Positions 3,106 through 28,845 of a stretch of 64,000 nucleotides of DNA are shown here, one piece after another. The stretch's first letter is position 1. Every line of letters starts with the position of its first letter. The notes beneath the pieces are model-generated. The model saw only the letters and a list, made by a program, of their open reading frames with translations. It made no database searches and had not been told where the DNA came from. This DNA is from Clostridium sp. CAG:524. Its GTDB lineage: Bacteria; Bacillota_I; Bacilli_A; RF39; UBA660. The translations under genes were made by a program, and so were the position numbers. Where the stretch lies: contig FR880112.1 of the NCBI GenBank assembly GCA_000434555.1, forward strand, positions 161 to 64,160, given 5' to 3'.

Positions 3106-4200
3106 ATGAAATTTATTTTAACTGCTGGTGGAACTGGAGGTCATATTTATCCAGCTTTATCAGTACTAGATGAAATAAAAAAGGATAAAAGTAATGAATA
3201 CTTATATATTGGAACTAAAGATAGAATGGAAAGTGATTTAATTCCAAGTATGGGAATTCCATATGAGGGACTTGAAATATATGGTCTTTCTAAAACTAAT
3301 ATAATTCGTGATATTAAAAATATTAAATGTATTAGTTCTTCATATAAAAAATGTTTAAAAATAATGGATGAATTTAAACCAGATGCAGTTATCGCATTTG
3401 GTGGCTATGTAACTTTACCAGTATGTTTAGCAGCTAAAAAGAAAGGAATAAGCGTATTTCTTCATGAACAAAACATGTTACCTGGTAAAACAAATATATT
3501 CTTATCATCTAAAGTAGATGCAGTATTCGTATCATTTAAAGATGGAACTAGAAAACTTAAATGTAAAAATATTATATATACAGGTAATCCAGTTAGTCAA
3601 AGAGCTATTGAAACAAAAAAATATAATAAAACAGATTTAGGATTTTCTAAAGATAAAAAACTTATAATAATAGTGATGGGATCTCTTGGCAGTACTTCTG
3701 TTAACGAAAGATTACTTGATTTCTTAAGAAGCTACGAAAGAGATGACACTGAAATTTTATTTATAACAGGTAAAAAGAGTTATGCAGATTTAAATAATAA
3801 TTTAATCGTACCTAAAAGTACTAAAATTGTACCTTTTTTTGAGAATCTACCAAGCCTAATGAAAAGTGCAGACTTAATTATATCAAGAGCTGGTGCTTCA
3901 ACTATCGCAGAAATTATGGCTACTAAAACACCATCAATATTAATACCAAGTCCATATGTAGCTAATAATCATCAATATTATAATGCACTTGATTTAGTTA
4001 ATAAAAAGATAAGTATTCTTATTGAAGAAAAAGATTTAGATAAAAATACACTTATTAAAGCAATAGATGAAATATTTGATGAAAATACTTTAAAAGAAAT
4101 AAAAAGTAATTTAAAAGAAATAAAAGACGTAGCATCTAGTACTTTAATAGTAAATAATATAAAAGCAATATTAAAGGAAAAGAATGCAAAAAAAGGTTAA
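3106..4200 (+). CDS. murG: Undecaprenyldiphospho-muramoylpentapeptide beta-N-acetylglucosaminyltransferase
   Basis: N-terminus MKFILTAGGTGGHIYPAL (MurG G-loop) and a C-terminal SRAGASTIAE block. I prefer the ATG at 3106 to the track's GTG at 3097. Confidence 0.85.
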   Translation: MKFILTAGGTGGHIYPALSVLDEIKKDKSNEYLYIGTKDRMESDLIPSMGIPYEGLEIYGLSKTNIIRDIKNIKCISSSYKKCLKIMDEFKPDAVIAFGGYVTLPVCLAAKKKGISVFLHEQNMLPGKTNIFLSSKVDAVFVSFKDGTRKLKCKNIIYTGNPVSQRAIETKKYNKTDLGFSKDKKLIIIVMGSLGSTSVNERLLDFLRSYERDDTEILFITGKKSYADLNNNLIVPKSTKIVPFFENLPSLMKSADLIISRAGASTIAEIMATKTPSILIPSPYVANNHQYYNALDLVNKKISILIEEKDLDKNTLIKAIDEIFDENTLKEIKSNLKEIKDVASSTLIVNNIKAILKEKNAKKG

Positions 4201-4861
4201 GAGAAAATTCAACTTTAAGAAATTCTTATTCTTTATAATATTTCTATTCTTATTATATATGGGACTTTCATACTTATTATCTATTAAGACAAAAAATATA
4301 GTTATATTAAATAATAGTTATTATAGTGATGATGATATAATTTATACTGCTAATATAGAAGATTATCCTAAGTTTATTCTATTAAATAAAAGCAAAATAA
4401 AAGATAAATTATTAAAACTTGATCTAATAGAAGATGTTACTATTAAAAAGAAATATGGATTTATTTTAGAAATTGATGTCAAAGAAAAGAAAATACTTTA
4501 TTATGTAAGAAGTACTGATACATATAAAGCATCTGATAATAATAATTATAAACTTGATAATATAATAGGCGTTCCTACATTAATTAATTATATTCCAGAA
4601 GATATAGAGAAAAACTTTGTTAAAAAGTTAAGTAATGTAGATAAGAGTATACTTGATATGATAAGTGAAATAGAATATAGTAAGACTTCATATGATGATA
4701 AAAGATTCTTACTTTATATGAATGATGGTAATATGGTCTATATTACTGTATCAAAAGCAGAACTTTTAAATAAATATGTTGAAATAATAAAAAAGGTTGA
4801 TAATAAAAAGGGTATATTATATTTAGATAGTGGAAACTATTTTGAAATTAAAGAGAAGTAA
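4184..4861 (+). CDS. divIB: Cell division protein DivIB/FtsQ-like (single TM plus POTRA)
   Basis: A basic N-terminus, one TM helix, then a POTRA-like region (NIVILNNSYYSDDDIIYTANI). It sits immediately after murG, overlapping it by 17 nt. Confidence 0.65.
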   Translation: MQKKVKRKFNFKKFLFFIIFLFLLYMGLSYLLSIKTKNIVILNNSYYSDDDIIYTANIEDYPKFILLNKSKIKDKLLKLDLIEDVTIKKKYGFILEIDVKEKKILYYVRSTDTYKASDNNNYKLDNIIGVPTLINYIPEDIEKNFVKKLSNVDKSILDMISEIEYSKTSYDDKRFLLYMNDGNMVYITVSKAELLNKYVEIIKKVDNKKGILYLDSGNYFEIKEK

Positions 4862-4895
4862 TTCATAATTTGCTTCTCTTTTAATATAATTTAAT

Positions 4896-5249
4896 ATGGA
4901 AAAGATAGATAAATTTAAAAAATTTGTTTCTAATCATCCTGAATTTGTAGATTATGTACATAAAAATAAAGTAACATGGCAATCTTTTTATGAATTATAT
5001 GATATATATGGAGAAGATATGGATGTATGGAATAAGTATATTAAGGATGATATAAAAGATAGTATTAATATAAAAGGAATATTAAGTACTCTTAAAAATA
5101 TTAATTTAGATTCACTTGAAGAAAACATTGGTTCACTTCAAAAGGCTATGTCTCTTGTAGAAGAATTAACAAGAGATAGTAAGAAAGATGAAGAAAAAGT
5201 AGAAGCAAAAGAAGAAAAGATTGATACTTTCTTTGGAGATGATAAATAA
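4896..5249 (+). CDS. Small acidic cytosolic protein, possibly YlbD-like
   Basis: 117-aa ORF with no TM helix. Its neighbour is YlbE-like. The resemblance is from memory only. Confidence 0.35.
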   Translation: MEKIDKFKKFVSNHPEFVDYVHKNKVTWQSFYELYDIYGEDMDVWNKYIKDDIKDSINIKGILSTLKNINLDSLEENIGSLQKAMSLVEELTRDSKKDEEKVEAKEEKIDTFFGDDK

Positions 5250-5473
5250 TGTACAAAGAAGTAAAAGAAAAACTTGATAAAGATCCTAGATTTAAAAAAT
5301 ATTTAAGAGAGAATTCTAATTGGTATACAGAACTTAATAGAGACCCATCTTCTTATGATAAATTTGTTAAAGAAATGAAAAAGAAATATAAACTTAGAAC
5401 TATAGATAAAGTAGATAATTTTGTTGACACAGTTGATTTAGTAACTAAGATAATTAATATTTCTAATGAATAA
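5249..5473 (+). CDS. YlbE-like small protein
   Basis: 74 aa. The pattern KE..E.L.KDPRFKKYLRENSNWYTELNRDP matches the YlbE family pattern (..FLREQPMWYRKLSRNP..). It abuts the upstream stop codon. Confidence 0.45.
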   Translation: MYKEVKEKLDKDPRFKKYLRENSNWYTELNRDPSSYDKFVKEMKKKYKLRTIDKVDNFVDTVDLVTKIINISNE

Positions 5474-5496
5474 TTTATAGAATATCTATAATATTA

Positions 5497-5525
5497 TTGA
5501 CTTATAAATTTAGTTAAATTAAAAT
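5497..5525 (+). promoter_or_regulatory. Sigma-A-type promoter of pilin paralogue A
   Basis: TTGACT, a 17-nt spacer, then TAAAAT. Confidence 0.5.
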
Positions 5526-5563
5526 TATATTGTAAGATTATAGATAGAAATGAGATGTTAATT

Positions 5564-6073
5564 ATGAAAAAATCAAGTGTTATTATATTTGGAGTACTAA
5601 TAATTTTTGCTATTTTAGTTGTTCCAAAGTTAATTAAAAAGTTTAGTAATGATAGTAAAGTTGATAATACAAATACTACTACTAAAATTAGTAATGATAG
5701 ATTTATTGTTGAAACAAAAAGAATGATAAGAAATGTTCAACATCAATATTTAAGTGATTTTGGTAAATGGAATTATTATGCTTTAGATGGATCAAGGGAT
5801 AAAAATTCAAATCCTGTAACTACTAAAGAATGTACATCAGCTAATGGTATCGATGTAACAACTGATGTTAGCGGAAATATTAAACAATATTGCAGAATAC
5901 ATCATGAAAAAGAAATAATATTTAAAAGTTTTATAGTTACTTTTAATGCTAGCGATGGTCAAGTAAATACATTATATGCTAATGATGGTACATACGAATA
6001 TACTTTCAATAGCAATGGTGGTACAGTTGCATTTGATGCTACTAAAGTTACAGCTACTGAAATTGGTAAATAA
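5564..6073 (+). CDS. Pilin-fold paralogue lacking the prepilin cleavage motif (signal-anchor N-terminus)
   Basis: The body and C-terminus are homologous to the two pilins downstream (FIVETKRMIRNVQHQYLSDFGKW; the last ~45 aa are almost identical to 6192..6668). The N-terminus is MKKSSVIIFGVLIIFAILVV, with no G/FTLVE site. Confidence 0.6.
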   Translation: MKKSSVIIFGVLIIFAILVVPKLIKKFSNDSKVDNTNTTTKISNDRFIVETKRMIRNVQHQYLSDFGKWNYYALDGSRDKNSNPVTTKECTSANGIDVTTDVSGNIKQYCRIHHEKEIIFKSFIVTFNASDGQVNTLYANDGTYEYTFNSNGGTVAFDATKVTATEIGK

Positions 6074-6075
6074 TA

Positions 6076-6096
6076 AAAGCCTTAGGGCTTTTTTTT
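6076..6096 (+). terminator. Intrinsic terminator (AAAGCC-TTAG-GGCTTT plus T-run)
   Basis: Hairpin followed by a T6 run. The same hairpin recurs after each of the three pilin genes. Confidence 0.75.
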
Positions 6097-6119
6097 GACA
6101 AAACTATTTTAAAAATTTA

Positions 6120-6148
6120 TTGACTTATATATTTTTATAATTTATAAT
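6120..6148 (+). promoter_or_regulatory. Consensus sigma-A promoter of pilin B
   Basis: TTGACT, a 17-nt spacer, then TATAAT. Confidence 0.65.
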
Positions 6149-6191
6149 AAATATTGTAAAGATAATAGTAGAAAGGATTGTGATATTTATT

Positions 6192-6668
6192 ATGAAAAGA
6201 CAAGGTTTTACATTAGTAGAGTTATTAGCAGTTATTGCTATCTTAGCTATCTTAGTTATTATTGCACTTCCAAATGTACTAGGAATGTTCAATCAAGCTA
6301 AAAAAGATACATTTACTACTGAAACAAAAGAAATGGTTAAGATTACACAACAACAATATCTAGCTACTTTTGGTAAGTACACAAAATATGCTGTTGACAA
6401 GTCATTACCAAAAGGCGAAACTGATGAAACAAAAGCAATAAATACTGTACCTTGTACAAGTGCTTCTGGAGCTAGTGCAGAACAATATTGTAAAATTGAT
6501 AAAGAAGCTGGAAATTTAAAAAGTTTTATTTTAACTTTTAATGCTAGCAATGGTCAAGTAAATACATTATATGCTAATGATGGTACATACGAATATACTT
6601 TCAATAGCAATGGTGGTACAGTTGCATTTGATGCTACTAAAGTTACAGCTACTGAAATTGGTAAATAA
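6192..6668 (+). CDS. Type IV pilin / competence pseudopilin-type prepilin (class III signal peptide)
   Basis: MKRQG|FTLVELLAVIAILAILVIIALP. This has the short basic leader, Gly-1, Phe+1 and Glu+5 that define the prepilin N-terminal cleavage/methylation domain. Confidence 0.85.
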   Translation: MKRQGFTLVELLAVIAILAILVIIALPNVLGMFNQAKKDTFTTETKEMVKITQQQYLATFGKYTKYAVDKSLPKGETDETKAINTVPCTSASGASAEQYCKIDKEAGNLKSFILTFNASNGQVNTLYANDGTYEYTFNSNGGTVAFDATKVTATEIGK

Positions 6669-6669
6669 T

Positions 6670-6689
6670 AAAAGCCTTAGGGCTTTTTT
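6670..6689 (+). terminator. Intrinsic terminator (same hairpin as 6076..6096)
   Basis: AAAGCCTTAGGGCTTT plus a T-run. Confidence 0.75.
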
Positions 6690-6718
6690 CTTTTTAACAA
6701 AACTATTCTAAAAATTTA

Positions 6719-6747
6719 TTGACTTATATATTTTTATAATTTATAAT
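6719..6747 (+). promoter_or_regulatory. Consensus sigma-A promoter of pilin C
   Basis: TTGACT, a 17-nt spacer, then TATAAT. It is near-identical to 6120..6148. Confidence 0.65.
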
Positions 6748-6789
6748 TAATATTGTAAAGATAATATAGAAAGGATTGTGATATTTATT

Positions 6790-7269
6790 ATGAATAAGAA
6801 AGGTTTTACATTAGTAGAGTTATTAGCAGTTATTGCTATCTTAGCTATCTTAGTTATTATTGCACTTCCAAATGTACTAGGAATGTTCAATCAAGCTAAA
6901 AAAGATACATTTACTACTGAAACAAAAGAAATGGTTAAAATTGCTCAACAACAATACTTAGCTACTTTTGGTAAATTCACTAGATATGCAACTGCTGGTT
7001 CAGCAGACGTTCCTAATGCAGCTACTAACATCGTTCCTTGTACTAGTAGTACTGAAAAATTAGATGCTGGAAAGTATTGTAAAATTGATAAAGAAGCTGG
7101 AAATTTAAAAAGCTTTGTAATCGAATTTAAAGCTAGTGATGGACAAGTAGATACTATTAAAGCAAATGATGGAACTTATAAATATGAACTTACAGGTGGC
7201 AATTATGATGCTACTAAAGTTACAGCAACTGAAATAGGTGCTACAACAACTACAAAAGCAGGAAAATAG
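6790..7269 (+). CDS. Type IV pilin / pseudopilin-type prepilin
   Basis: MNKKG|FTLVELLAVIAILAILVIIALP. The first ~60 aa are almost identical to pilin B. The central and C-terminal parts diverge. Confidence 0.85.
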   Translation: MNKKGFTLVELLAVIAILAILVIIALPNVLGMFNQAKKDTFTTETKEMVKIAQQQYLATFGKFTRYATAGSADVPNAATNIVPCTSSTEKLDAGKYCKIDKEAGNLKSFVIEFKASDGQVDTIKANDGTYKYELTGGNYDATKVTATEIGATTTTKAGK

Positions 7270-7291
7270 TTGTAAATCATAATAAGATATT

Positions 7292-7310
7292 AAAGCCTTA
7301 GGGCTTTTTT
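7292..7310 (+). terminator. Intrinsic terminator (same hairpin)
   Basis: AAAGCCTTAGGGCTTTTTT. Confidence 0.75.
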
Positions 7311-7350
7311 ATTTTAAAAAAATATTTTATAATGTTAATGGTGATGTAAA

Positions 7351-8232
7351 ATGAATTTAATAATAGGTAGTCATGTAAGTTTTAATAGCAAGAAACAATT
7401 ACTAGGTAGTGTAGAAGAAGCACTTAGTTATAATGCAAATACATTTATGATATATACAGGTGGTGCTCAAAGTACTATAAGAAGTAATATAAACGATGAA
7501 TATACATATGAAGCATTTAAATTAATGATAGAGAATAATATTAATCCTAAAAACATTATTGTTCATGCTCCATATATAGTTAATTTAGCAAATAAAAGTG
7601 ATGAGAGAAAATATGAATTTTATATAGAATTCTTAATAAATGAATTAAATAGAGTAAAAGAGTTAGGACTTGATAAAATAGTTCTTCATCCTGGTAGTGC
7701 TACTACATGTACAAAAGAAGAAGCTATCTCTAATATTACTGAAGGCATAAATAAAATATATGAAAAGACTACAGATGTAATGATACTTTTAGAATATATG
7801 GCTGGTAAAGGTAATGAAGTAGGTACTTCTATTGATGAACTTAAAAGTATCATTGATAAAATAAATGATAAAGATAGAGTTGGCGTATGTATAGATACTT
7901 GCCATATGAATGATTCTGGTGTTGATATATCTAAATTTAATGAATTTTTAGATGAATTTAATAGTAAAATAGGTATTAATAAAATAAAATGTGTTCATGT
8001 AAATGATAGTTTAAATCCTATTGGTAGTCATAAAGATAGACATGCTAATATTGGATATGGTACTATTGGATTTGATAACTTAATTAATGTTGTTTATAAT
8101 GATAGATTAGAAGGTATACCATTTATATTAGAAACTCCATATATAAATAGAAATAATAAAGATGCTTATGCTCCATATAAAATGGAAATAGAGAGTATTA
8201 GGAATAAAAAGTTTACTGATTTTATTCAATAA
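7351..8232 (+). CDS. nfo: Deoxyribonuclease IV (endonuclease IV)
   Basis: IGSHVS start, HAPYIVNLA, VLHPGS, LLEYMAGKGNEVG, CIDTCH and ILETP blocks, which are the Nfo TIM-barrel metal ligands. Confidence 0.9.
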   Translation: MNLIIGSHVSFNSKKQLLGSVEEALSYNANTFMIYTGGAQSTIRSNINDEYTYEAFKLMIENNINPKNIIVHAPYIVNLANKSDERKYEFYIEFLINELNRVKELGLDKIVLHPGSATTCTKEEAISNITEGINKIYEKTTDVMILLEYMAGKGNEVGTSIDELKSIIDKINDKDRVGVCIDTCHMNDSGVDISKFNEFLDEFNSKIGINKIKCVHVNDSLNPIGSHKDRHANIGYGTIGFDNLINVVYNDRLEGIPFILETPYINRNNKDAYAPYKMEIESIRNKKFTDFIQ

Positions 8233-8476
8233 ACTTTTTATATTGATTATATTTTTCAATTATTGTTCTATATAGATCTGGATTGAAATTTAATTTATAA
8301 TTTGAAATATAACTCATGAAATTAGTTTCTAATATCTCTTCATAGTCATTCTTAATAGCATTATATATCATATCTATTTCTTCATTTGATGCTGGTATAC
8401 ATTCTTTACTTAAATAATTTATTATATCTTGTTTAGTTAGTTTTGATATATAATTCTTAAGTAGTTCTTTTTTCAA
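8222..8476 (-). CDS. Small helical hypothetical protein
   Basis: 84-aa ORF convergent with nfo. An RBS-like GGAGG lies upstream on the minus strand. I recognise no motif. Confidence 0.4.
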   Translation of the reverse strand: MKKELLKNYISKLTKQDIINYLSKECIPASNEEIDMIYNAIKNDYEEILETNFMSYISNYKLNFNPDLYRTIIEKYNQYKKFIE

Positions 8477-8517
8477 ATAAAAACCTCCTACTAATAGTTT
8501 ATTAGTAAGAGATTTAT

Positions 8518-9747
8518 TTATTCATTTAAATGTGATATTGCATTAATAAGTGATATTTTTCCATATTCATATGTAAGTGCTCCTTGTTCATATATTACGA
8601 ATGGTTCTCTTAATGGTCCATCACATGATATTTCTATTGAACTTCCTTGTATAAATGAAGAAGAAGCCATTATTATTTCATCAGTATAACCTGGCATAGG
8701 GGATGGAATAGGGTTAATATTTGCATCTATTGCTCCACTATGTTGGATACCTTCAGCATACTTTATCATTTGTTCTCTATTATTAAAATATATAAGTTCT
8801 ACTATATCAACTCTATGTTCATTATATCTTGGGCTTACTTTAAACCCTAGAGCTTCTAGTACTTTACTCGTTAGAATAGCTGTCTTTAAAGCAGAAGATA
8901 CTACTGAAGGTGACAAATATAGTCCTTGTAAGAACTCACGATTAGCACTTCCACTAGGTCCTACTTCTTTTCCTTCTCCTACCACATTTAATCTTTCAGC
9001 ACATAATTCTATAAGTTCTTTTTTACCAGCAATATAGCCACCATTACGAGCAATACCGCCACCTAAATTCTTTATTAAACTTCCAGCAATTAAGTCTGCT
9101 TTAGGATTTATTGTTTCTACAAATTCACAGTAGCAATTGTCTACAAATATTATTATATTTTTATTTATATTTTTAATGAATTCTATTACTTTATTAACTT
9201 TATTTACATCTAATGAATCTCTAAGAGAGTAGCCTCTACTTCTTTGAATATGTATCATTTTAATATTGTTATTTTCTATTTTCTCTTTAATTTTATCATA
9301 ATCAAAATCATTGTCTTTTAAATCTATTTCTTTATAATTAATATTGTAACTCATAAGTGAACTATTATTAGGCTTAATACCAATTACTTCATGTAATGTA
9401 TCATATGGAGTACCTGTTATTGTTAAAAGCGTATCATTTGGTCTTAAAATAGCAAATAAAGCAGTACTTATCGCATGACTTCCAGATATTATTTGTGTTC
9501 TTACAAGAGCATCTTCAGTATCAAGAATATATGCAAAAATACTTTCTATCTTATCTCTACCAATATCATTATAACCATATCCAGTAGTTCCATTTAAATC
9601 ACTTTCACTTATATTATACTTATGAAAAGCATCTAATACTTTTTTACTATTGTTAAATGTATTATTATCTATTTCACTAAAAATATCTATTAATTCTTTT
9701 TCTTCATTATTAACTAGTTCTATATATTTTTGATTAAGTTTTAACAT
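8518..9747 (-). CDS. YnbB / aluminium-resistance family PLP-dependent enzyme (Cys/Met metabolism fold)
   Basis: Family blocks TGYGYNDIGRDKIE, EDALVR.QI.SGSHAI, PYDTLHEVIGI, HIQRSRGYS, VDNCYCEF, AGSLIKNLGGGIA, MPGYTDEIIMA and QGSSIE.S.DGPLREP. Confidence 0.8.
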   Translation of the reverse strand: MLKLNQKYIELVNNEEKELIDIFSEIDNNTFNNSKKVLDAFHKYNISESDLNGTTGYGYNDIGRDKIESIFAYILDTEDALVRTQIISGSHAISTALFAILRPNDTLLTITGTPYDTLHEVIGIKPNNSSLMSYNINYKEIDLKDNDFDYDKIKEKIENNNIKMIHIQRSRGYSLRDSLDVNKVNKVIEFIKNINKNIIIFVDNCYCEFVETINPKADLIAGSLIKNLGGGIARNGGYIAGKKELIELCAERLNVVGEGKEVGPSGSANREFLQGLYLSPSVVSSALKTAILTSKVLEALGFKVSPRYNEHRVDIVELIYFNNREQMIKYAEGIQHSGAIDANINPIPSPMPGYTDEIIMASSSFIQGSSIEISCDGPLREPFVIYEQGALTYEYGKISLINAISHLNE

Positions 9748-10475
9748 TTTTTACCACCATCTATTCTTATAACTGAATCATTTATATAACTTGCATCCTC
9801 ACTAGATATAAAATATATAAGATTAGCAATTTCATTTGGTTCAGCAAATCTCTTAAGTAATATTTTATCTTCTTCTTGCTTTCTAAATTCCATGTCCATA
9901 TCTTTATTCATAGGAGTATTTATCCATCCAGGACATATTGTATTAACTCTTATTTTAGGACTTAAATAGTTTGCTAGATTATGACTTAAATTAATTATTC
10001 CAGCTTTAGAACTATCATAATCAAGACTATATTCATAATAAGTATCTATTCCATTAGTTGAACTTATATTTATAATACTACTATTATCACTCATTATAGT
10101 AGACATTATTTTAGATACAAGAAATGTTCCAACTAAATTAACTTCTAATATTTTCATATAGTTTTCCTTTGTTTTATCACTAAATGTTGTATCTATCGCT
10201 ATACTAGCATTATTTACTAAAACATCTAATTTATTAAATTTATTTATTATTTCTTGTCTTAAATTTTCAATATCTTCTTCTTTTGATATATCACACTTTA
10301 TTACTAAAGATTCAGTATTATATTTATCTTTTATTTCTTTTTGTAATTTTATTGCTTCATCTTTATGACTATTGTAAGTAATAATAGTATTATATCCCAT
10401 ACTCGCATATTTTCTTATTATTGATGCTCCAAGTCCTATACTAGAACCTGTTACTAAAACACACTTTTTATTCAT
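9741..10475 (-). CDS. Short-chain dehydrogenase/reductase (SDR) family oxidoreductase
   Basis: TGSSIGLG dinucleotide motif, NNAS, and the YxxxK catalytic pair (YDSSKAG). The start is placed at the internal Met (MNKKCVLVTG) preceded by GGAGG. The track ORF extends to 10508. Confidence 0.8.
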   Translation of the reverse strand: MNKKCVLVTGSSIGLGASIIRKYASMGYNTIITYNSHKDEAIKLQKEIKDKYNTESLVIKCDISKEEDIENLRQEIINKFNKLDVLVNNASIAIDTTFSDKTKENYMKILEVNLVGTFLVSKIMSTIMSDNSSIINISSTNGIDTYYEYSLDYDSSKAGIINLSHNLANYLSPKIRVNTICPGWINTPMNKDMDMEFRKQEEDKILLKRFAEPNEIANLIYFISSEDASYINDSVIRIDGGKKC

Positions 10476-19913: not shown

Positions 19914-20266
19914 GGGGATGCATTGATTCGACAGGATTATGTTTGGGTAGAATGCAAGTAGTAGGCGTACTTTAAACGTAAAAACAAAATAATCGGAAAC
20001 GATTTTAATTTTTCTCCAGCTTTTGCCTAAGTTAGGTAAAAAGGAGCTTCCACTTTTAACTTTTGTTCACGAGTTTTAAGAGGGGAGTCATAAAGTGAAC
20101 TATATTATAAATTTGTTTATGATTTATAACGAATGATTAGTAAACTTTGAATAGTAAGAGAAGTTGGCAATCTACATTATTATTCGAGAATAAAAACCAA
20201 CTAAACTTGTAGATGTTCTATTGGAATGAATCTTGGACAGGAGTTCGCTACTCCTCATCTCCACCA
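19914..20266 (+). ncRNA. ssrA: tmRNA (SsrA)
   Basis: The 5' GGGGATG pairs with the 3' CATCTCC, giving a G3:U70 wobble, followed by ACCA. There is a T-arm GGAG-TTCGCTA-CTCC. The tag frame reads ...GNDFNFSPAFA with a stop at 20028-20030. A TTGTCA / TG-n-TATAAT promoter lies upstream. Confidence 0.9.
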
Positions 20267-20328
20267 AATATGTTATTTACTCTTTAAAAAGAGTTTTTCT
20301 TTTGATATAATTTTATTGTTGTTAATAT

Positions 20329-20403
20329 TGCCCTGTGGCCAAGTGGTAAGGCTCTGGACTCTGACTCCAGCATGCATAGGTTCGAATCCTATCAGGGCAA
20401 CCA
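20329..20403 (+). tRNA. tRNA-Gln (anticodon CUG)
   Basis: Cloverleaf folded by hand. U1:A72 acceptor TGCCCTG/CAGGGCA, anticodon stem CTGGA/TCCAG with loop CU-CUG-AC, T-arm ATAGG-TTCGAAT-CCTAT. CCA is encoded. Confidence 0.85.
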
Positions 20404-20404
20404 T

Positions 20405-20480
20405 GCCAAAATAGCTCAATTGGTAGAGCAACTGAATCGTAATCAGTAGGTTGGGGGTTCGATTCCTCTTTTTGGCACCA
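20405..20480 (+). tRNA. tRNA-Thr (anticodon CGU)
   Basis: Acceptor GCCAAAA/TTTTGGC, D-arm GCTC-AATTGGTA-GAGC, anticodon stem ACTGA/TCAGT with loop AU-CGU-AA, and a T-loop TTCGATT. CCA is encoded. The T-stem has two G:U pairs. Confidence 0.75.
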
Positions 20481-20592
20481 TAAAGAAATTTTATTGTATT
20501 ATATAAATGTTAAAATTAGTTGCGTAATTTCCATAGAATATTGGTAGAATATACTTACTTAAAATGCTATTATCTTTTTGAAAGGAGAAAGT

Positions 20593-21171
20593 ATGAATTT
20601 AGGAAATAAAATAATGACTTTAAGAAAAAAGAATAATCTTTCACAAGAAGATTTAGCAGAGAAAGTAGGTGTAACAAGACAAACAATATCTAAATGGGAA
20701 CTTGAAGAAACAACACCAGATATTAATCAAGCAAGGAAACTATCTATGATATTTAATATAAGTCTTGATGAACTTGTTAATAATGATGTAAATAGTATAT
20801 TAATAGAAAAAGTAAGTAATACAGAAAGACTAGCTGGTATAATTATTAAGATATTAAAGGTATCAGGTATATTACTTATATTATTTATTGTTTTAATGCT
20901 TACATTACTTATAATGTTTAATTTTAAAAGATTTAATAATGATAGAGTTATAGTTGGAAAAGCTAGTGTTTCTTGTAAACTTAATAGTGAAGAATATTTA
21001 TATGAAGTTGAATATAATAAAAACTATCAAGTTATCAATGCTGGAGGAGATGCTTTTATACCTAATCATATAGATGTTGAAAAATATGAAGACATTAATC
21101 AAATTATTGCTCATATTGAAGATTATTTTAGTGAACATAATGGTTCTTGTGAAGTTAATTATTCAAAATAA
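20593..21171 (+). CDS. XRE-family HTH transcriptional regulator with a TM helix and extracytoplasmic domain
   Basis: LRKKNNLSQEDLAEKVGVTRQTISKWE is a Cro/C1 HTH. A hydrophobic helix GIIIKILKVSGILLILFIVLMLTLLIMF follows. The ATG at 20593 follows AAGGAG. Confidence 0.8.
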   Translation: MNLGNKIMTLRKKNNLSQEDLAEKVGVTRQTISKWELEETTPDINQARKLSMIFNISLDELVNNDVNSILIEKVSNTERLAGIIIKILKVSGILLILFIVLMLTLLIMFNFKRFNNDRVIVGKASVSCKLNSEEYLYEVEYNKNYQVINAGGDAFIPNHIDVEKYEDINQIIAHIEDYFSEHNGSCEVNYSK

Positions 21172-22256: not shown

Positions 22257-23885
22257 ATGAAAAAATTTAAAAATTATTTAATGTTAATAAGTTTATTGAT
22301 AATACCAAATATTGTTTTAGCGAGTACTAATAATACAATTTCTCTTTATGAAGCAGTATTTTATGAATTTTTTGCTACAATATTTGCTACTCTTTTTGTT
22401 TTAAAGCCATTATCAAAATTATTTTCAGAAACAGAAAGTGAAAAGCTTTTTTGGAAATTATTTGGTATTAGAGCACTAATATTGATTATATTTGATCTAT
22501 TTATCTCTACTAATATATATAAAACTGATATGTTAGTAATAGCTATTTTTGGAATATTTATTGTACCTATATGTAGTATAATAAAGAAAAAAGATCCTTA
22601 TAAAAAAGTACAATCTGTGCCTAATATAACAGTAACATCACAAATGGCTAATAAAACAAAAACAGAAGTTATCATCAAATGTGCTAAATGTGGCAATGTA
22701 ATGAATGTTAATGACAAATTTTGTACTAATTGTGGTGAAGCATTTAGTGGTAATAATGCTATCGTTAGTGAAGAAGTTGTAGAAGTAGTAGATCCATCTA
22801 AATTTGATATAATCTTTCAAGCAAAAGATGATGATAAACTATTAGAAGCATTTATATATAGAGAACTTAAAAAAGCAGAACTTAATCTTGATACCCCACT
22901 TATACCACAAGAATTAATGAAAAGAAAAAATGTCTTCAATATTATATTTTCAGTATTGATATTTGCTTATGTATCTCTTATATTCTTTCACTTTCCACTT
23001 ATAACATATATTATAGGTATAGTAATATTATTTATATTATCAAAATTAACTAAAAAATATAATTTAATGAATTATTTAAAGAAAGAGGTTAAATCAAGAC
23101 CAGGTGAAAAAATATCTAATATAATTATGAATACTAAAGTTTCATTAATTGAAGATACTAGTAAAAAGAAAAATATAGTATTTATATTAATCGCAGTTAT
23201 TATTCCTCTTGTAATATTCTATGAACCTAGAATATTGTATGAAGAAACAACTGGTGGTTATGCAGTTAGATTTTATACTTTTGGACTTACTAATTATAAA
23301 ACTGCAACTATACCTGAAACATATAAAAATAAAAAGATTGTTGAATTAAGAGGTAATACATTTTCTAATATGCCATTCTTAGAAAGTGTTAGCCTTCCAA
23401 ATACTATTAAAGAAATAAGGGGTCAAGCTTTTAAAAATGATAGAAAACTAACAACAGTAAATATTCCATCAAGTTTAGAGTACTTGGGCGGTGGTGCTTT
23501 TTATAATTGTACTAGCATTACTGAAATAATACTTCCTGATACATTAACTGAATTAGGTGGAGAAGCATTTTATAATGCAAGTTCTCTTAGAAATATAAAA
23601 CTATCAGAAAATCTTATTGAAATAAAAGGAAATACTTTTGAAGAATGTACATCTCTTACTAGTATTGTAATTCCTGATAAAGTTACTAGAATAGGAGGAC
23701 ATGCATTTTATCATAATACTTCATTATCAGGTGTTACAATATCAAAAAATAGTAAACTTACTGAAATAGGATCAAGTGCTTTTAGACAATGCCCAAGCCT
23801 TCAAAATATAATATATCCATGCAGGACTTATGTTAATGAAAGAGCATTTAAAGAAAGCCCTACAAGCATACAATGTTATAGATAG
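22257..23885 (+). CDS. Polytopic membrane protein with a zinc ribbon and a C-terminal BspA-type leucine-rich-repeat domain
   Basis: Signal peptide plus TM helices. The Zn ribbon is CAKCGNVMNVNDKFCTNCG, with further TM helices after it. Then come ~23-aa repeats of the LRR_5 type (I..IGG.AF..C.SL..I.IP). Confidence 0.7.
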   Translation: MKKFKNYLMLISLLIIPNIVLASTNNTISLYEAVFYEFFATIFATLFVLKPLSKLFSETESEKLFWKLFGIRALILIIFDLFISTNIYKTDMLVIAIFGIFIVPICSIIKKKDPYKKVQSVPNITVTSQMANKTKTEVIIKCAKCGNVMNVNDKFCTNCGEAFSGNNAIVSEEVVEVVDPSKFDIIFQAKDDDKLLEAFIYRELKKAELNLDTPLIPQELMKRKNVFNIIFSVLIFAYVSLIFFHFPLITYIIGIVILFILSKLTKKYNLMNYLKKEVKSRPGEKISNIIMNTKVSLIEDTSKKKNIVFILIAVIIPLVIFYEPRILYEETTGGYAVRFYTFGLTNYKTATIPETYKNKKIVELRGNTFSNMPFLESVSLPNTIKEIRGQAFKNDRKLTTVNIPSSLEYLGGGAFYNCTSITEIILPDTLTELGGEAFYNASSLRNIKLSENLIEIKGNTFEECTSLTSIVIPDKVTRIGGHAFYHNTSLSGVTISKNSKLTEIGSSAFRQCPSLQNIIYPCRTYVNERAFKESPTSIQCYR

Positions 23886-23899
23886 AAAGAGTGATAAAC

Positions 23900-25639
23900 A
23901 TGAATAATACAAAATTTATACATCTATTATATGTTCCAACTATGGCATGTAATATGGCATGCAAATATTGTTATCTTGAAGATAATACAAAAGATGAATA
24001 TAGTAATATTGATTCCATTGAAACATTAAAATATGCGATTAATAAATTCAAAAAAAATAATGTTATTCCATTTAATATTTCACTTCATGGAGGAGAAGTA
24101 ACAACACTTTCTAAAAAAGAATTCCATGATTTAATAAAATACATAAGTGATTACTATAAAGAAAATAAAAATATTATAACAAACGCAGGATTCAAAGTAG
24201 GAAAGCCACATATAAAAACTAATCTATATGGATTAGATAAACATATAGATACAATAAAAGAATTTAATGTGTCTATTTCTGGTAGTTTAGATTTACCACT
24301 ATCACTTCATGATGAATATAGAGTTACTAAAGGAAACAATAAAACACTAGATAAAATACTTAGTAATATAGAACTATTAAAAGATATTCCAAATAAAAAG
24401 AAAATTTCTTCTACAATATTTAAAGAACATTATGAAAAAATAGATGAAATAATTAATGATATTAAATTTTTACACAAAAATACTTGTTTAGATATGAATG
24501 ACTTTAATTTTATGATAGGATTTGACTATAATTCAAATGGTATACTTCATCATATAACAGAAGAAGAACAAGTATCATTCTATGAAAGAATGCATAAAGA
24601 ATTTGATGGTACAGATTTGGATTATGGAGTAAATGGTCCATGGTTTGATGAATTTGGTCCTGAATATTGTTCTAATTGTGATAACTGTGGTAAAAAGTTC
24701 TTCTTACTTGAAAAAAATGGTGATATCTATTCATGTGTAAGAGGTCAAAAAAATAAAGATTATTACTATGGAAATATATATAAAAACACTATAGAAGAAA
24801 TACTAACTAATGCAGAATTAAAAATATTTAATAACCATAATAAACTATCATTTAATGATGAATGTGCTAAATGTGGATACTTATATTTATGTAAAACAGG
24901 TTGCCCATTTGTGAAGAATAACTATAATACTAATAAAAGTTATACATGTTTATTACAACAAAAAATGTATAAAGATAGAAATTATTCAAAAGATATATAT
25001 AATGATGAAACAGTTTATAGATATCTATCTAATATGAGAAATATAGATCTTACTAAATATATACCAAATAGGATAAGTAATAACAATCAAGATTTAGTGA
25101 GTATAATTAATAATGATAAAAACTTAAAATATATTTATGATGATGATTCATTTATATTATCAGTAGATGGAATAGAATTTAAATTAGAGTCTCAAATTAT
25201 AAAGAAAACTAGAGATATAGTTTATATCGCTAAAACATCTAAAATAGAAATATATATGAAAAAGAATTTAATAAATGAAGTATGTGATTATCCTGAAAAT
25301 AATTCATTATATATAATGTTATTATCTGGCGATTTAATCACATATGGAGATGAAAATAGAACTAAACAAAGACATATTGCAACACATCAAATATATAAAG
25401 GCGTTTTAGATAACAATGTTTCATCTAAAAAAGGATATTATAAATATGATATATCATCTTTAATAAAAGAATATAGTAAAGAATACTCAATGAGTGATCC
25501 AAATAATATATTCTTTACTACATCATCTTTAAGAGATTATCATTATTTAAAGCAAAAGAATAATGCATATTATCATATAAATGCTATAAATTTACCATTT
25601 CAAAATATTGAATTTTATTATATAGATAAGGAGTTATAG
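23900..25639 (+). CDS. Radical SAM / SPASM-domain enzyme with an ~240-aa C-terminal extension of unknown function
   Basis: CNMACKYC (CX3CX2C) at nt ~23948-23971. The full SPASM pattern is present: C-x10-G-x4-C (CGKKFFLLEKNGDIYSC) and CAKCGYLYLCKTGC (CX2CX5CX3C). The ATG at 23900 is preferred to the track's GTG at 23891. Confidence 0.85.
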   Translation: MNNTKFIHLLYVPTMACNMACKYCYLEDNTKDEYSNIDSIETLKYAINKFKKNNVIPFNISLHGGEVTTLSKKEFHDLIKYISDYYKENKNIITNAGFKVGKPHIKTNLYGLDKHIDTIKEFNVSISGSLDLPLSLHDEYRVTKGNNKTLDKILSNIELLKDIPNKKKISSTIFKEHYEKIDEIINDIKFLHKNTCLDMNDFNFMIGFDYNSNGILHHITEEEQVSFYERMHKEFDGTDLDYGVNGPWFDEFGPEYCSNCDNCGKKFFLLEKNGDIYSCVRGQKNKDYYYGNIYKNTIEEILTNAELKIFNNHNKLSFNDECAKCGYLYLCKTGCPFVKNNYNTNKSYTCLLQQKMYKDRNYSKDIYNDETVYRYLSNMRNIDLTKYIPNRISNNNQDLVSIINNDKNLKYIYDDDSFILSVDGIEFKLESQIIKKTRDIVYIAKTSKIEIYMKKNLINEVCDYPENNSLYIMLLSGDLITYGDENRTKQRHIATHQIYKGVLDNNVSSKKGYYKYDISSLIKEYSKEYSMSDPNNIFFTTSSLRDYHYLKQKNNAYYHINAINLPFQNIEFYYIDKEL

Positions 25640-25640
25640 A

Positions 25641-26021
25641 ATGAATAAAGAACCAGAAACATATGAAGAATTAATAAGACAAAAAAGATGTATTGACTTA
25701 ACTAAATATTATGAACTTAGTATGGATGATTTAAATAAAATATATACTTTTTTAGAAGAAAATAAAGATGGACAAGTAAGAGGCGGTCTAACAGAACTTT
25801 CACTTGTGAAAAAGAATGTAAAAGAAAATGAAACTATGAAAGTAAATCTTATAAATAAAAGTATTGATGGACTTGTAATGGATAATGAAAAATTTAGCCT
25901 TATACCACATTATGAACCTACAACGTGGAGTAGTAGTGGATATAGTGGAAGTTATAGTGGTGGATCATCAAATAACAATAATAATAATAACAATAACAAC
26001 AATAATAACAATAATAGGTAG
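25641..26021 (+). CDS. Hypothetical 126-aa protein with a Ser/Gly/Tyr tail and a 15-residue poly-Asn tract (candidate rSAM substrate)
   Basis: The start lies 1 nt after the rSAM stop. The C-terminus is PTTWSSSGYSGSYSGGSS-N15-R. Confidence 0.6.
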   Translation: MNKEPETYEELIRQKRCIDLTKYYELSMDDLNKIYTFLEENKDGQVRGGLTELSLVKKNVKENETMKVNLINKSIDGLVMDNEKFSLIPHYEPTTWSSSGYSGSYSGGSSNNNNNNNNNNNNNNNR

Positions 26022-26029
26022 GTGATAAT

Positions 26030-27043
26030 ATGTCATTAATATCAGAAGATACACAATATAATAAATTAAGAAAATTACATATAAATATTAAAACAAAATA
26101 TATAACTGGTAATAAAATACTAGAACGTAATACAGATAACAGTTATAATGATGATATCTTAGATGGTATAAGATGTAAAAAAGAATATTATCTAAATGAT
26201 AAATTAGTTCATACAGAAAATAAATTTGATTCAAGAATTACATATACATTTATATCAAAAGAAATGGAAAATAAAGATTATAAATGTCCTAACTGTGGTA
26301 TGAGTGGTAAACTACATGACTTCTTAGATGGTTGTCCATATTGTAAAACATATTATAATATAGACTATACAGATAAAGAACTAGGCAGTAAGTATCATTA
26401 TGATAGAGTACTTAGAAATACAAAATATAGAATCTTTACAGGAATAATAGATATTATAATAAGTTTATTTCTTACATATTTATATATAATTAATACATCA
26501 AGAACATTTAATTCTTATGATATATCTAAAATATTTATATATGGATTTATATTATCATTAATACTTTATTATTTCTTTTATATAATAGATGCTTATATAA
26601 TATTAGGGCCTATTAAAAGATATAAAGATAAACAAAATCAAAAACAAATTGACTTTTGGAAAAGTACAAAAATAAATAAGAAAAACTTTTTTAATAATTA
26701 TAACTATGAAGTAAGAAATAAATATTATTCTAAATCTAATATTATTGATTATGATGTTATTGATTTTGATGATTTTAAAAGTTATAAAAAGAATAATGAT
26801 TTATATATTGATATTGATGCTTATGTAAGAATTGTATACTTTGATAACGGTAAAATAACGTCAAAGTATTTAGAAGAAAAATATACATTTAAAAAAATAA
26901 GTAATGATGTGTTAGATTTAAAAGATGGGGCTAATATAATTAAATGTCATAATTGTGGTGCTTCTATTGATGCGAAAAAAGGTGAATGTGAATTTTGCCA
27001 TACTAAAATTAAATATCTTCAAGAATGGATAATTATAGAATAA
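26030..27043 (+). CDS. Zinc-ribbon membrane protein (Zn ribbon, 2 TM helices, C-terminal domain ending in a second Zn ribbon)
   Basis: CPNCG...CPYC near residue 90. Two TM helices follow. The C-terminal domain ends in CHNCGASIDAKKGECEFC. Its RBS overlaps the upstream stop. Confidence 0.6.
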   Translation: MSLISEDTQYNKLRKLHINIKTKYITGNKILERNTDNSYNDDILDGIRCKKEYYLNDKLVHTENKFDSRITYTFISKEMENKDYKCPNCGMSGKLHDFLDGCPYCKTYYNIDYTDKELGSKYHYDRVLRNTKYRIFTGIIDIIISLFLTYLYIINTSRTFNSYDISKIFIYGFILSLILYYFFYIIDAYIILGPIKRYKDKQNQKQIDFWKSTKINKKNFFNNYNYEVRNKYYSKSNIIDYDVIDFDDFKSYKKNNDLYIDIDAYVRIVYFDNGKITSKYLEEKYTFKKISNDVLDLKDGANIIKCHNCGASIDAKKGECEFCHTKIKYLQEWIIIE

Positions 27044-27912: not shown

Positions 27913-28845
27913 ATGAAAAACGAAATAATTTTATTTGAAAATCAAAATGTAAAACTTGAAGTTAATATGAAGGATGAAACAGTATGGTTGAGTCAAGACC
28001 AAATGGCAAAGTTATTTGGAAAAGCAAAGTCAACTATCAATGAACACATAAAAAATATTTATAAAGAAGAAGAATGCCTTAAAGAACAAACTATGACTAA
28101 ATTCGGAAATTCCGAATTTAATGGAAAGCCAACATATTATTATAATTTAGATGTAATAATTAGTGTCGGTTATCGTGTTAAATCACAAAATGGTATTATT
28201 TTTAGAAAATGGGCAAGTCAAATATTAAAAGATTATATGATTAAAGGATATGCGGTTAATCAAAAGAGATTAGAATATCTAGAAAAAACAGTTAAACTAA
28301 TCGATATTGCTAATAGAATAGATGGAAAATTAAATAATGGTGATGCAAGGGAAATATTAAAAGTAATAGGTAACTATTCAAAAGCTCTTGATCTTTTAGA
28401 TGATTATGATCATAAGACATTATCAAAACCTAAAGGAAGTAATAGTAAAGAACAAATTAAATATGAAGACTGTTTAGATGTGATTAATAAATTAAGATTT
28501 AATGAAGAAAGTGATATTTTTGCTATTGAAAGAGACAAAGGATTACAGGCAATAATTGGAAATATATATCAAACATTTGATGGAAATGATGTATACAAAA
28601 GTATTGAGGAAAAAGCATCTAATTTCTTATATATGATTGTTAAAAATCATGTCTTTATCGATGGAAATAAAAGAATAGCAGCAACTTTATTTATATATTT
28701 TTTAAACTATTATAACATTTTATATAAAGAAGATAAGCAAGTTATTGATAATAACACTTTAACAGCACTAACTATATTAATAGCAGAATCTAATCCAAAA
28801 GAAAAAGAAGTAATAATTGATTTAGTTATGAATTTTTTAAATTAA
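27913..28845 (+). CDS. RhuM-family N-terminal domain fused to a Doc/Fic-type domain
   Basis: The N-terminus ILFENQNVKLEVNMKDETVWLSQDQMAKLFGKAKSTINEHIKNI is RhuM-like. The C-terminus HVFIDGNKRIAATLF fits the Doc motif HxFx(D/N)(A/G)NKR. Confidence 0.75.
   Translation: MKNEIILFENQNVKLEVNMKDETVWLSQDQMAKLFGKAKSTINEHIKNIYKEEECLKEQTMTKFGNSEFNGKPTYYYNLDVIISVGYRVKSQNGIIFRKWASQILKDYMIKGYAVNQKRLEYLEKTVKLIDIANRIDGKLNNGDAREILKVIGNYSKALDLLDDYDHKTLSKPKGSNSKEQIKYEDCLDVINKLRFNEESDIFAIERDKGLQAIIGNIYQTFDGNDVYKSIEEKASNFLYMIVKNHVFIDGNKRIAATLFIYFLNYYNILYKEDKQVIDNNTLTALTILIAESNPKEKEVIIDLVMNFLN

Follow-up and report, generated by a model that had tools for sequence, protein, structure and literature searches.

A radical-SAM/SPASM enzyme family encoded beside unrelated proteins with C-terminal polyasparagine tails, its candidate substrates

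Introduction

Radical S-adenosylmethionine (SAM) enzymes of the SPASM subfamily are a major source of new peptide chemistry. The anaerobic sulfatase-maturating enzymes (anSME), DynA, PapB, DarE and the triceptide maturases all act by abstracting hydrogen from a side chain of their peptide or protein substrate. Of these, anSME oxidises the Cβ of a Ser or Cys residue and acts on a full-size protein, not on the precursor of a ribosomally synthesised and post-translationally modified peptide (RiPP), and DynA forms a C–C bond to the β-carbon of Asn, a precedent for SPASM attack at that position. To our knowledge, almost all characterised radical-SAM/SPASM enzymes act on short RiPP precursors or on sulfatases, and a homopolymeric Asn tail on full-size proteins is not known to have been reported as a substrate motif. 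Here we analyse a four-gene operon (positions 22257-27043) within a 64,000-nt stretch of Clostridium sp. CAG:524 (contig FR880112.1), hereafter the window, in which the second open reading frame (ORF) encodes a SPASM enzyme, ORF2, and the third a small protein, ORF3, that ends in such an Asn tail.

Several described systems share individual features with this locus. The triceptide maturases (YhhB, FxsB, GrrM/OscB and AmcB), which fall into the same broad anSME-like SPASM clade as ORF2, have their substrate encoded next door. MftC and PqqE are SPASM enzymes whose targets are C-terminal or near-C-terminal residues of a dedicated carrier, MftA or PqqA, encoded by an adjacent gene. QhpD matures a protein subunit, QhpC, and not a natural product. 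We propose with moderate confidence that this operon represents, in Bacilli and Clostridia, a widespread protein-maturation system in which ORF2 acts on the C-terminal Ser/Thr-(Asn)n-X tail of its partner.

Results

ORF2 (23900-25639, forward strand, 579 aa; alternative GTG start at 23891) comprises a radical-SAM core plus SPASM domain (residues 1-355; 23900-24964, forward strand) and a family-specific C-terminal domain (residues 356-579; 24965-25639, forward strand). A preliminary, sequence-only reading of the window had noted a CX3CX2C cluster and a SPASM signature, and profile searches bore this out: ORF2 scored above the cut-offs of PF04055 (Radical_SAM; E 2e-11, 44.7 vs 29.5 bits) and of the SPASM models PF13186 (E 1e-6, 29 vs 21.5 bits) and TIGR04085 (45.3 vs 27 bits), and also matched Fer4_12. 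ORF2 is thus a member of the radical SAM superfamily and of its SPASM subfamily. In alignments spanning 30-96% identity, the three cysteines of CNMACKYC (Cys17/21/24) were invariant, as were eight further SPASM cysteines (257, 263, 279, 322, 325, 331, 335 and 350) from Firmicutes to Proteobacteria. These eight are spaced like the cysteines that fully ligate both auxiliary clusters in anSME. The protein begins directly with the radical-SAM core and has no N-terminal RiPP recognition element (RRE).

The AlphaFold model of ORF2 (mean confidence score, pLDDT, of 89) superimposed best on anSMEcpe (4K36; E 2e-14, over the first ~390 aligned columns), followed by CteB, SuiB and ChlB. At the level of curated NCBIfam families, ORF2 missed every cut-off widely, the domain-level TIGR04085 excepted; the best sub-threshold families were anSME, DynA, DarW/DarE, PapB, HxsB and the cyclophane maturases. 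As the sequence-only reading had supposed, these relatives support the assignment of ORF2 as a protein- or peptide-modifying type of SPASM enzyme, one that would lie outside the described families.

The long C-terminal stretch, in which no motif had been recognised, proved distinctive. Its last ~225-230 residues matched no family, and in alignments of ORF2 homologues they carry the very highly conserved motifs YGDExRxKQxH, TTxxLRxxHYxKQxxNAxYH and NLPFxNxxF. All of the invariant positions (YGDxxRxKxxH, TT..R..HY, NAxYH and NxP) fall in ORF2 residues 482-492, 540-559 and 564-566, and many of the invariant residues of the domain are polar (N, Q, H, Y, K, R and D). An exhaustive HMMER search of 1.84 billion representatives with this domain returned 101 clusters in total. 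All full-length matches were proteins of 588-616 aa with the domain at the C-terminal end, and the seven inspected had the same radical-SAM/SPASM architecture as ORF2. The domain was found only in what appear to be ORF2-type enzymes. Its model (pLDDT 84) consists of helices plus a beta-sandwich; a fold search of the PDB and BFVD gave no significant match (best E 6e-3, TM-score ~0.3), the hits being insignificant generic beta-sandwiches, and a sequence search of the PDB gave none. One phage protein cluster, phrog_1802, matched ORF2 end to end including this domain (E 1e-45) and also matched the phage homologue in locus L092. A phage branch of the enzyme family therefore exists and has already been clustered.

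ORF3 (25641-26021, forward strand, 126 aa), which begins 1 nt after ORF2, ends as had been read from the letters in GGSS-N15-R. This Ser-polyAsn tail (25959-26018, forward strand), the proposed recognition or modification element, comprises an Asn run at 25971-26015 and a terminal Arg at 26016-26018. ORF3 has neither a membrane helix nor a signal peptide and would be a soluble carrier; it matched no family in Pfam, NCBIfam, PHROGs or PADLOC. Database searches returned 106 homologues of 105-130 aa. In 94 distinct homologues from gut Bacilli and Clostridia the Asn run is 8-20 residues long (median 13), is preceded by SSS in 76 and is followed by a single Arg in 83; the 77 homologues from our genome scan, described below, end ...IPHY(T/V/E)PSS...GGSSS-N(n)-R. 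The tail of ORF3 is the sole Asn run of four or more residues in any ORF of the window, where GC content is ~24% and Asn makes up 7.7% of residues in the long ORFs.

The codons of the ORF3 run are a mix of AAT and AAC, unlike those of the remaining operon. Across low-GC Asn runs, AAC accounts for 38% of codons vs 10% elsewhere in the window's operon; in the runs of a GC-rich clade it accounts for 62% vs 84-95% in the radical-SAM genes of two such genomes. Since usage shifts toward a mix from both directions, these data indicate selection at the protein level. Such a mix plausibly limits replication slippage.

The sequence-only reading had also aligned a 20-residue segment of ORF3 with ORF2. 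The resemblance is present (9 of 20 residues identical) and reflects no conserved relation: the IDLTKY common to both is not kept among ORF2 homologues (I 5%, L 11%, T 21%), and profile-profile comparison of ORF3 with ORF2 gave a probability of 0.5%. On these grounds we ascribe the resemblance to chance and reject the idea that ORF3 is a duplicated piece of the ORF2 C-terminal domain.

We scored a locus as having a tail if an ORF neighbouring the enzyme gene contained an Asn run of at least four in its last 12 residues. By this measure a tail was present in 115 of 122 enzyme-family loci vs none of 105 control loci, which were fetched around other radical-SAM genes lacking the C-terminal domain and comprised 1.1 Mb and 9720 ORFs. 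In four of the seven exceptions (L016, L019, L024 and L147), the contig ends within or just after the enzyme gene or at the start of ORF3, short of where a tail would be encoded. In a fifth, L015, the ORF3 homologue stops at ...YYSRGSS, ahead of any Asn run; the last two, from prophages, are weighed in the Discussion.

The tailed proteins fall into several families, namely ORF3, a proteobacterial protein of ~145 aa, small phage proteins and the C-termini of phage tail fibres. Comparison of their profiles gave probabilities of at most 0.3% once the tails had been trimmed, and the untrimmed profiles aligned through the tail alone. Apart from the tail, the carriers thus show no detectable homology. 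This co-occurrence of enzyme and tail across unrelated carriers points to ORF3 as the best candidate for the substrate, through its Ser-polyAsn tail. The suggestion that ORF3 is a substrate thus gained support; the aromatic triplets through which it had been thought to act did not, as discussed below.

We scanned one genome per GTDB species. ORF2 relatives were encoded in 252 stretches, and the best 80 loci were examined; almost all were metagenome-assembled genomes of uncultured gut Bacilli, 'Tenericutes', 'Mycoplasma sp. CAG' or Clostridia. Wherever the contig permits, homologues of ORF1, ORF2, ORF3 and ORF4 are co-linear. Identity to the window's proteins was 67-96% for ORF2, 39-85% and often full length for ORF1, about 50% over residues 1-93 for ORF3 and 48-99% for ORF4, which was co-linear in at least 71 loci. 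Of 79 Bacilli/Clostridia loci, 78 have an ORF1 orthologue immediately before the ORF2 homologue, and in 77 species an ORF3 homologue directly follows ORF2, either overlapping it (usually by 4 or 8 nt) or at most 11 nt away. Median spacings are 17 nt for ORF1-ORF2, -4 nt (an overlap) for ORF2-ORF3 and 11 nt for ORF3-ORF4. A metagenome scan returned, among the matches listed, mostly the Firmicute clade again.

In the window, the four ORFs are co-directional and separated by 14, 1 and 8 nt, and the Shine-Dalgarno sequence of ORF4, AGGTAGGTGA (26016-26025, forward strand, read directly from sequence), spans the TAG stop codon of ORF3. These features had been noted before and were verified, and the proposal that the four genes form one unit is strengthened by the order and tight spacing kept in 77-78 other species. 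The window's flanking genes are common only to its nearest relative, L002, and two long contigs showed unrelated neighbourhoods with no protease, exporter or sulfatase. The reported lack of these genes near the operon also holds more broadly: no protease, ABC exporter or sulfatase is consistently present in the window or in the fetched neighbourhoods, and a sulfatase was found neither around the operon in the window nor in any fetched context. Three Bacilli genomes have, ~5-6 kb from the cassette, Tyr/Gly/Asn-rich ORFs of 61-65 aa that contain a single membrane helix and have NNNN near their C-terminus (L013:16214-16399, L027:12143-12328 and L054:15317-15514, minus strand). These may be unrelated or may be additional Asn-tailed targets.

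Distant homologues of ORF2, at 30-40% identity, occur in a different setting. In the Betaproteobacteria Ferribacterium, Rhodoferax, Uliginosibacterium and Formivibrio, the myxobacterium Archangium and metagenome contigs, at 54-68% GC, a three-gene cassette encodes a membrane protein of ~150 aa, the enzyme and then a protein of ~145 aa ending (N/Q/S)S-N(8-19)-G, for example ...ERNSNNNN...G. In Ferribacterium limneticum (L140), the enzyme and the tailed protein are encoded at 8001-9806 and 9809-10270. Because runs of 8-19 Asn occur at this base composition, the tails are not an artefact of low GC. Most of these carriers (L140-L145) have a moderately hydrophobic Gly/Ala/Leu-rich segment, e.g. LVMLGTAALLLNLPG, ~20-30 residues before the Asn run, which could help to associate the protein with a membrane; the Firmicute ORF3 family lacks such a segment. 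The membrane protein of this cassette (L140:7531-7980; homologues in L141-L145) has the strongly conserved cytoplasmic motif GPRYLICG ... ERDKFPTGARK.DKIA.NKAAKF and received no family assignment; Uliginosibacterium has two tandem paralogues of it.

A third setting is found in phages. In Campylobacter phage CAM-P21 and related prophages, the tailed protein is a tail fibre encoded two genes upstream of the enzyme (PF12571, E 4e-40; phrog_1162, E 8e-88). Fibres of this type end ...YAPSGSTNNNNY (STNNNNY), or ...SCNNNNN in one relative. In CAM-P21 the gene of the Asn-tailed fibre is followed by that of a 211-aa protein and then by the enzyme gene; next come genes for a DUF1353 tail-assembly chaperone and for a further fibre-related protein. 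The enzyme gene lies between the tail-fibre and sheath genes. The two genes after it, whose products of 128 and 337 aa match ORF3 and ORF4 in size, were considered as their counterparts; they are unrelated, being the DUF1353 chaperone and the fibre-related protein. On three large phage-like contigs, the small protein encoded just upstream of the enzyme ends ...TSSNNNNNNRG, ...FSNNNNNNLAGNV or ...RNNNGNNNNSCSGGW. In one of these, L091, the small protein (7208-7534) ends ...FSNNNNNNLAGNV and the preceding 1000-aa protein (4196-7198) ends ...YHGNNNS; this contig may have two substrates.

Phages lacking the enzyme provide a natural comparison. The fibre of phage PC10 (also CGC-2007/CJIE1) shares its first ~150 residues with that of CAM-P21 at 93% identity, and the fibre of a Helicobacter pullorum prophage is 74% identical to it over the same length. 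Neither PC10 nor the Helicobacter prophage encodes an enzyme of the family; their fibres end ...SFMELR and ...SFIRYS, respectively, and in both a DUF4376 protein comes next. This pattern indicates that the enzyme gene is exchanged as one module with the Asn-tailed end of the fibre. The enzyme accordingly belongs to the fibre region and is not random cargo. The 211-aa protein of CAM-P21, which is phrog_10241, takes the place of the DUF4376 protein of the related phages. A protein of 141-211 aa is encoded directly upstream of the enzyme in all phage versions (L001:5351-5986, L092:7508-7954 and L115:7545-7970) and may serve as a fibre chaperone suited to Asn-tailed fibres or may assist the enzyme.

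ORF1 and ORF4 are membrane proteins with zinc ribbons, and ORF1 has a BspA-type leucine-rich repeat (LRR) domain; here Pfam matches and hydropathy agree with what had been read from the window. ORF1 (22257-23885, forward strand, 542 aa) has N-terminal membrane helices, a cytoplasmic-type zinc ribbon (Cys142/145/156/159), further helices according to hydropathy, and then the LRR domain at residues ~340-540 (LRR_5; Pfam E 2e-48); its zinc-ribbon Pfam matches are weak. ORF4 (26030-27043, forward strand, 337 aa) consists of an N-terminal soluble region, a first ribbon (Cys86/89/102/105), two membrane helices (~135-193), a soluble region and a second ribbon (Cys306/309/320/323). Both ribbons are of the form CxxC...CxxC, and all eight cysteines are 99-100% conserved. 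The only Pfam matches of ORF4 are weak ones to zinc ribbons, and a sequence search of the PDB found no relative.

Profile comparisons showed that ORF1 and ORF4 have a generic zinc ribbon in common; they revealed no relation of either protein to the proteobacterial membrane protein or to the 211-aa phage protein. ORF1 is absent from the proteobacterial and phage versions. ORF1, ORF3 and ORF4 homologues therefore co-occur with ORF2 homologues, a check that the sequence-only reading had put forward, in Bacilli and Clostridia and not elsewhere: the link of ORF1 and ORF4 to ORF2 is limited to this version, and other lineages use other partners. A membrane partner is a recurring theme, provided by ORF1 and ORF4 in Firmicutes and by an unrelated small membrane protein in Proteobacteria.

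An Rfam scan found no regulatory RNA in or before the operon. Promoter and terminator scans of the region were uninformative because matches were no commoner than in shuffled sequence. One terminator-like hairpin (23945-23962) falls within the codons of the CX3CX2C motif. The best promoter-like match, TAGACA-18-TATAAT (11/12; 23783-23812), lies inside the 3' end of ORF1, ~90 nt before ORF2, and could be an internal promoter for ORF2-ORF4, with the reservation that such matches are no commoner than in shuffled sequence.

Upstream of the operon lie a transfer-messenger RNA (tmRNA) gene (19914-20266) and the genes of tRNA-Gln (20329-20403) and tRNA-Thr (20405-20480). These directly precede a gene block not conserved elsewhere, which consists of a helix-turn-helix (HTH) regulator, a 310-aa protein without assigned function and the operon, and the tmRNA-tRNA stretch (19914-20480) could mark the boundary of an integrated island. 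The regulator (20578-21171) is of the XRE type (HTH_3, E 9e-18) and is possibly membrane-anchored, having one strongly hydrophobic helix in its C-terminal half (residues 95-113); it is not conserved beside the cassette in other species. Downstream, 27913-28845 encodes a 310-aa fusion of a RhuM-family N-terminus with Fic/Doc; over nearly its whole length it matches PDC-S23, a candidate defence system in PADLOC (E 5e-119). Relatives of it lie close to the cassette in L031, L046 and L050, and this proximity is not general.

Discussion

We infer the following mechanism from the architecture of the enzyme, its relatives and its partners. ORF2 would be an anSME-like radical-SAM/SPASM enzyme with three [4Fe-4S] sites. 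Its C-terminal domain would stand in for the missing recognition element and bind the extreme C-terminal Ser/Thr-(Asn)n-X tail; the invariant Asn, Gln, His, Tyr, Lys and Arg residues of the domain would suit hydrogen bonding to Asn side chains. The domain would then feed the tail into the radical-SAM active site, where the 5'-deoxyadenosyl radical would abstract a hydrogen, most likely from a Cβ of the Ser/Asn stretch. We propose side-chain abstraction because the nearest relatives work in this way, anSME at the Cβ of Ser or Cys and DynA at that of Asn. The fully cysteine-ligated auxiliary clusters would take up the electron, leaving a C-terminal appendage that is oxidised or crosslinked. In the window, the substrate would be ORF3, predicted to be translationally coupled to ORF2, and the lineage-specific ORF4 and ORF1 would probably receive, anchor or display the matured protein at the membrane or cell surface. 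Whether this extends to an unrecognised modification system, in which a dedicated radical-SAM/SPASM enzyme with a new substrate-binding domain rewrites the C-terminal poly-Asn tails of unrelated proteins in Firmicutes, Proteobacteria, Myxococcota and phages, including the distal ends of phage tail fibres, is a broader proposal for and against which we find the balance about even.

Some observations weigh against tail modification by ORF2. The fibres of the two remaining exceptions, the Campylobacter-type prophages L089 and L090, end GNNF or GNNS, which shows that the system does not require a long Asn run. Ser usually precedes the run, Thr, Cys or Gly also being seen there, and the residue after it is R, G or Y depending on the clade; Asn is the sole universal residue of the tail, and no other single reactive residue is universal. 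Co-occurrence as such falls short of proving a substrate relationship. Finally, the roles of ORF1 and ORF4 in receiving, anchoring or displaying ORF3 are a guess based on co-conservation.

The Asn-tailed protein might alternatively be a non-substrate partner (such as a scaffold, regulator, chaperone or inhibitor) whose tail docks on the enzyme, which would then have a different target, for instance some other protein, a component of lipid or cell wall, or a small molecule. The C-terminal domain could serve as the docking module, and the membrane partners (ORF4, ORF1 and the proteobacterial ~150-aa protein) hint at an envelope-linked process. We nonetheless consider this unlikely: the nearest relatives of ORF2 by sequence and by fold act on polypeptides, the tailed phage protein is a fibre or a small fibre-region protein, no other partner is common across the clades, and no small-molecule pathway genes are conserved nearby.

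The sequence-only reading had pointed to WSS, YSG and YSG in ORF3 as cyclophane crosslink sites, which would make ORF2 a triceptide-like cyclophane synthase acting on aromatic-x-x triplets and ORF3 an unusually long RiPP precursor. ORF3 does adjoin ORF2, many species have Tyr or Trp near the ORF3 tail, and ORF2 has sub-threshold matches to AmcB, YhhB, GrrM and FxsB (E 1e-16 to 3e-7). The scores, however, are 30-60 bits against cut-offs of 310-445. The triplets themselves are variable or absent among ORF3 homologues, many of which have zero aromatic residues from PHY to the Asn run (e.g. ...SSGSGSSGGSSSN...), and neither the proteobacterial nor the phage partners contain any. The element shared across phyla is instead a Ser or Thr residue and then an Asn run at the very C-terminus, a feature set aside earlier as low complexity. 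With no conserved protease or exporter nearby and a 368-aa structural tail fibre among the carriers, cyclophane formation on ORF3 is improbable.

We rate as more improbable still that the cassette is an anti-phage defence or other accessory (moron) system that by chance occupies a mobile island here and a hotspot for phage cargo. It does lie just downstream of the tmRNA and two tRNA genes and near the RhuM-Fic/Doc gene, its flanks vary by species, and the CAM-P21 copy sits between tail-fibre and sheath genes. But none of ORF1-ORF4 has a match in PADLOC-DB 2.0; the phage gene is inside the fibre module, between the fibre and the tail-assembly chaperone, and swaps together with the fibre C-terminus; and ~250 species of one lineage have a single co-linear cassette each with ORF2 identity of 67-80%, which is unusual for defence islands. 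A neutral origin of the Asn run, through low complexity or slippage in an AT-rich genome and with no link to ORF2, has negligible probability despite the base composition and Asn content of the window, given a run that is the only one there, a position and flanking residues kept in 94 homologues, tails in GC-rich genomes and none in the control loci, and a codon mix that opposes genomic bias in both directions.

Modification of the Asn tail by ORF2 would matter in several respects. The family is common among Bacilli of the human and animal gut (relatives in ~250 species-representative genomes and >2000 database proteins). The occurrence of the enzyme in fibre modules suggests that in some phages the receptor-binding fibre is chemically matured at its tip; if so, this would be the first radical-SAM-matured phage receptor-binding protein, and the chemistry on asparagine would probably be new. 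Homopolymeric Asn runs, usually dismissed as low complexity, would gain a specific, testable function. Because the system is small, consisting of the enzyme and one partner, the hypothesis is directly testable.

Comparison with known systems

Both the best sequence family of ORF2 (TIGR03942, E 7e-25) and its best fold match (PDB 4K36-4K39) are anSME. Like ORF2, anSME has no N-terminal recognition domain, and its eight auxiliary-cluster cysteines have almost the same spacing. ORF2 misses the anSME cut-offs (TIGR03942, 87.9 vs 349.45 bits; PRK13745, 60.9 vs 484) and, unlike anSME, it has no sulfatase or C/S-x-P/A-x-R motif nearby, an extra domain of ~225 residues and a Ser-polyAsn-tailed partner. 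The second-best family is DynA (NF041298; E 3e-24, 86 bits vs a cut-off of 450), and the dynobactin/darobactin maturases together (NF041298, NF038005 DarE and NF041300) give 60-86 bits vs cut-offs of 450-650. The substrates of DynA and DarE are short exported RiPP precursors with Trp or His partners, whereas here the carriers are proteins and many tails have no aromatic residue; no short Trp-containing precursor of the dynobactin/darobactin type was found at the locus.

The remaining systems are more distant. ORF2 scores below the cut-offs of the triceptide models (NF041707, TIGR04269, TIGR04261 and NF041718), and an aromatic-x-x motif is unconserved in its partners. The match to MftC is weak (E 1e-8); the carriers MftA and PqqA are ~20-30 residues long and need an RRE chaperone (MftB or PqqD) and peptidases that release the cofactor, none of which is present here. 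That to QhpD (TIGR03906) is also weak (E 4e-11, 42 vs 453 bits), and the Cys pattern from which QhpD makes Cys-to-Asp/Glu thioethers is lacking. Nor does the locus resemble a canonical RiPP cluster, there being no RRE and no conserved protease or ABC transporter, and carriers of 84-368 aa that include a structural fibre. The end-to-end match, phrog_1802, is annotated 'radical SAM domain-containing protein', an entry that gives no function and no link to fibres or Asn tails.

The curated libraries Pfam and NCBIfam contain no model for ORF3 or for the ORF2 C-terminal domain, and full-text literature searches found nothing linking radical SAM enzymes to poly-Asn tails or to tail-fibre maturation. 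Consistent with the earlier impression that the combination fits no described system, neither a family model, a PADLOC match nor a literature link was found, and the pairing is apparently undescribed, absence from the libraries searched being no proof of novelty. We suggest that the proposed family be recognised by the C-terminal-domain motifs together with an adjacent Ser/Thr-(Asn)n tail followed by 0-6 residues, both of which ORF2 and ORF3 display. Set beside the known systems, it would be a SPASM maturase whose recognition domain, substrate motif and class of targets, phage tail fibres among them, are all new.

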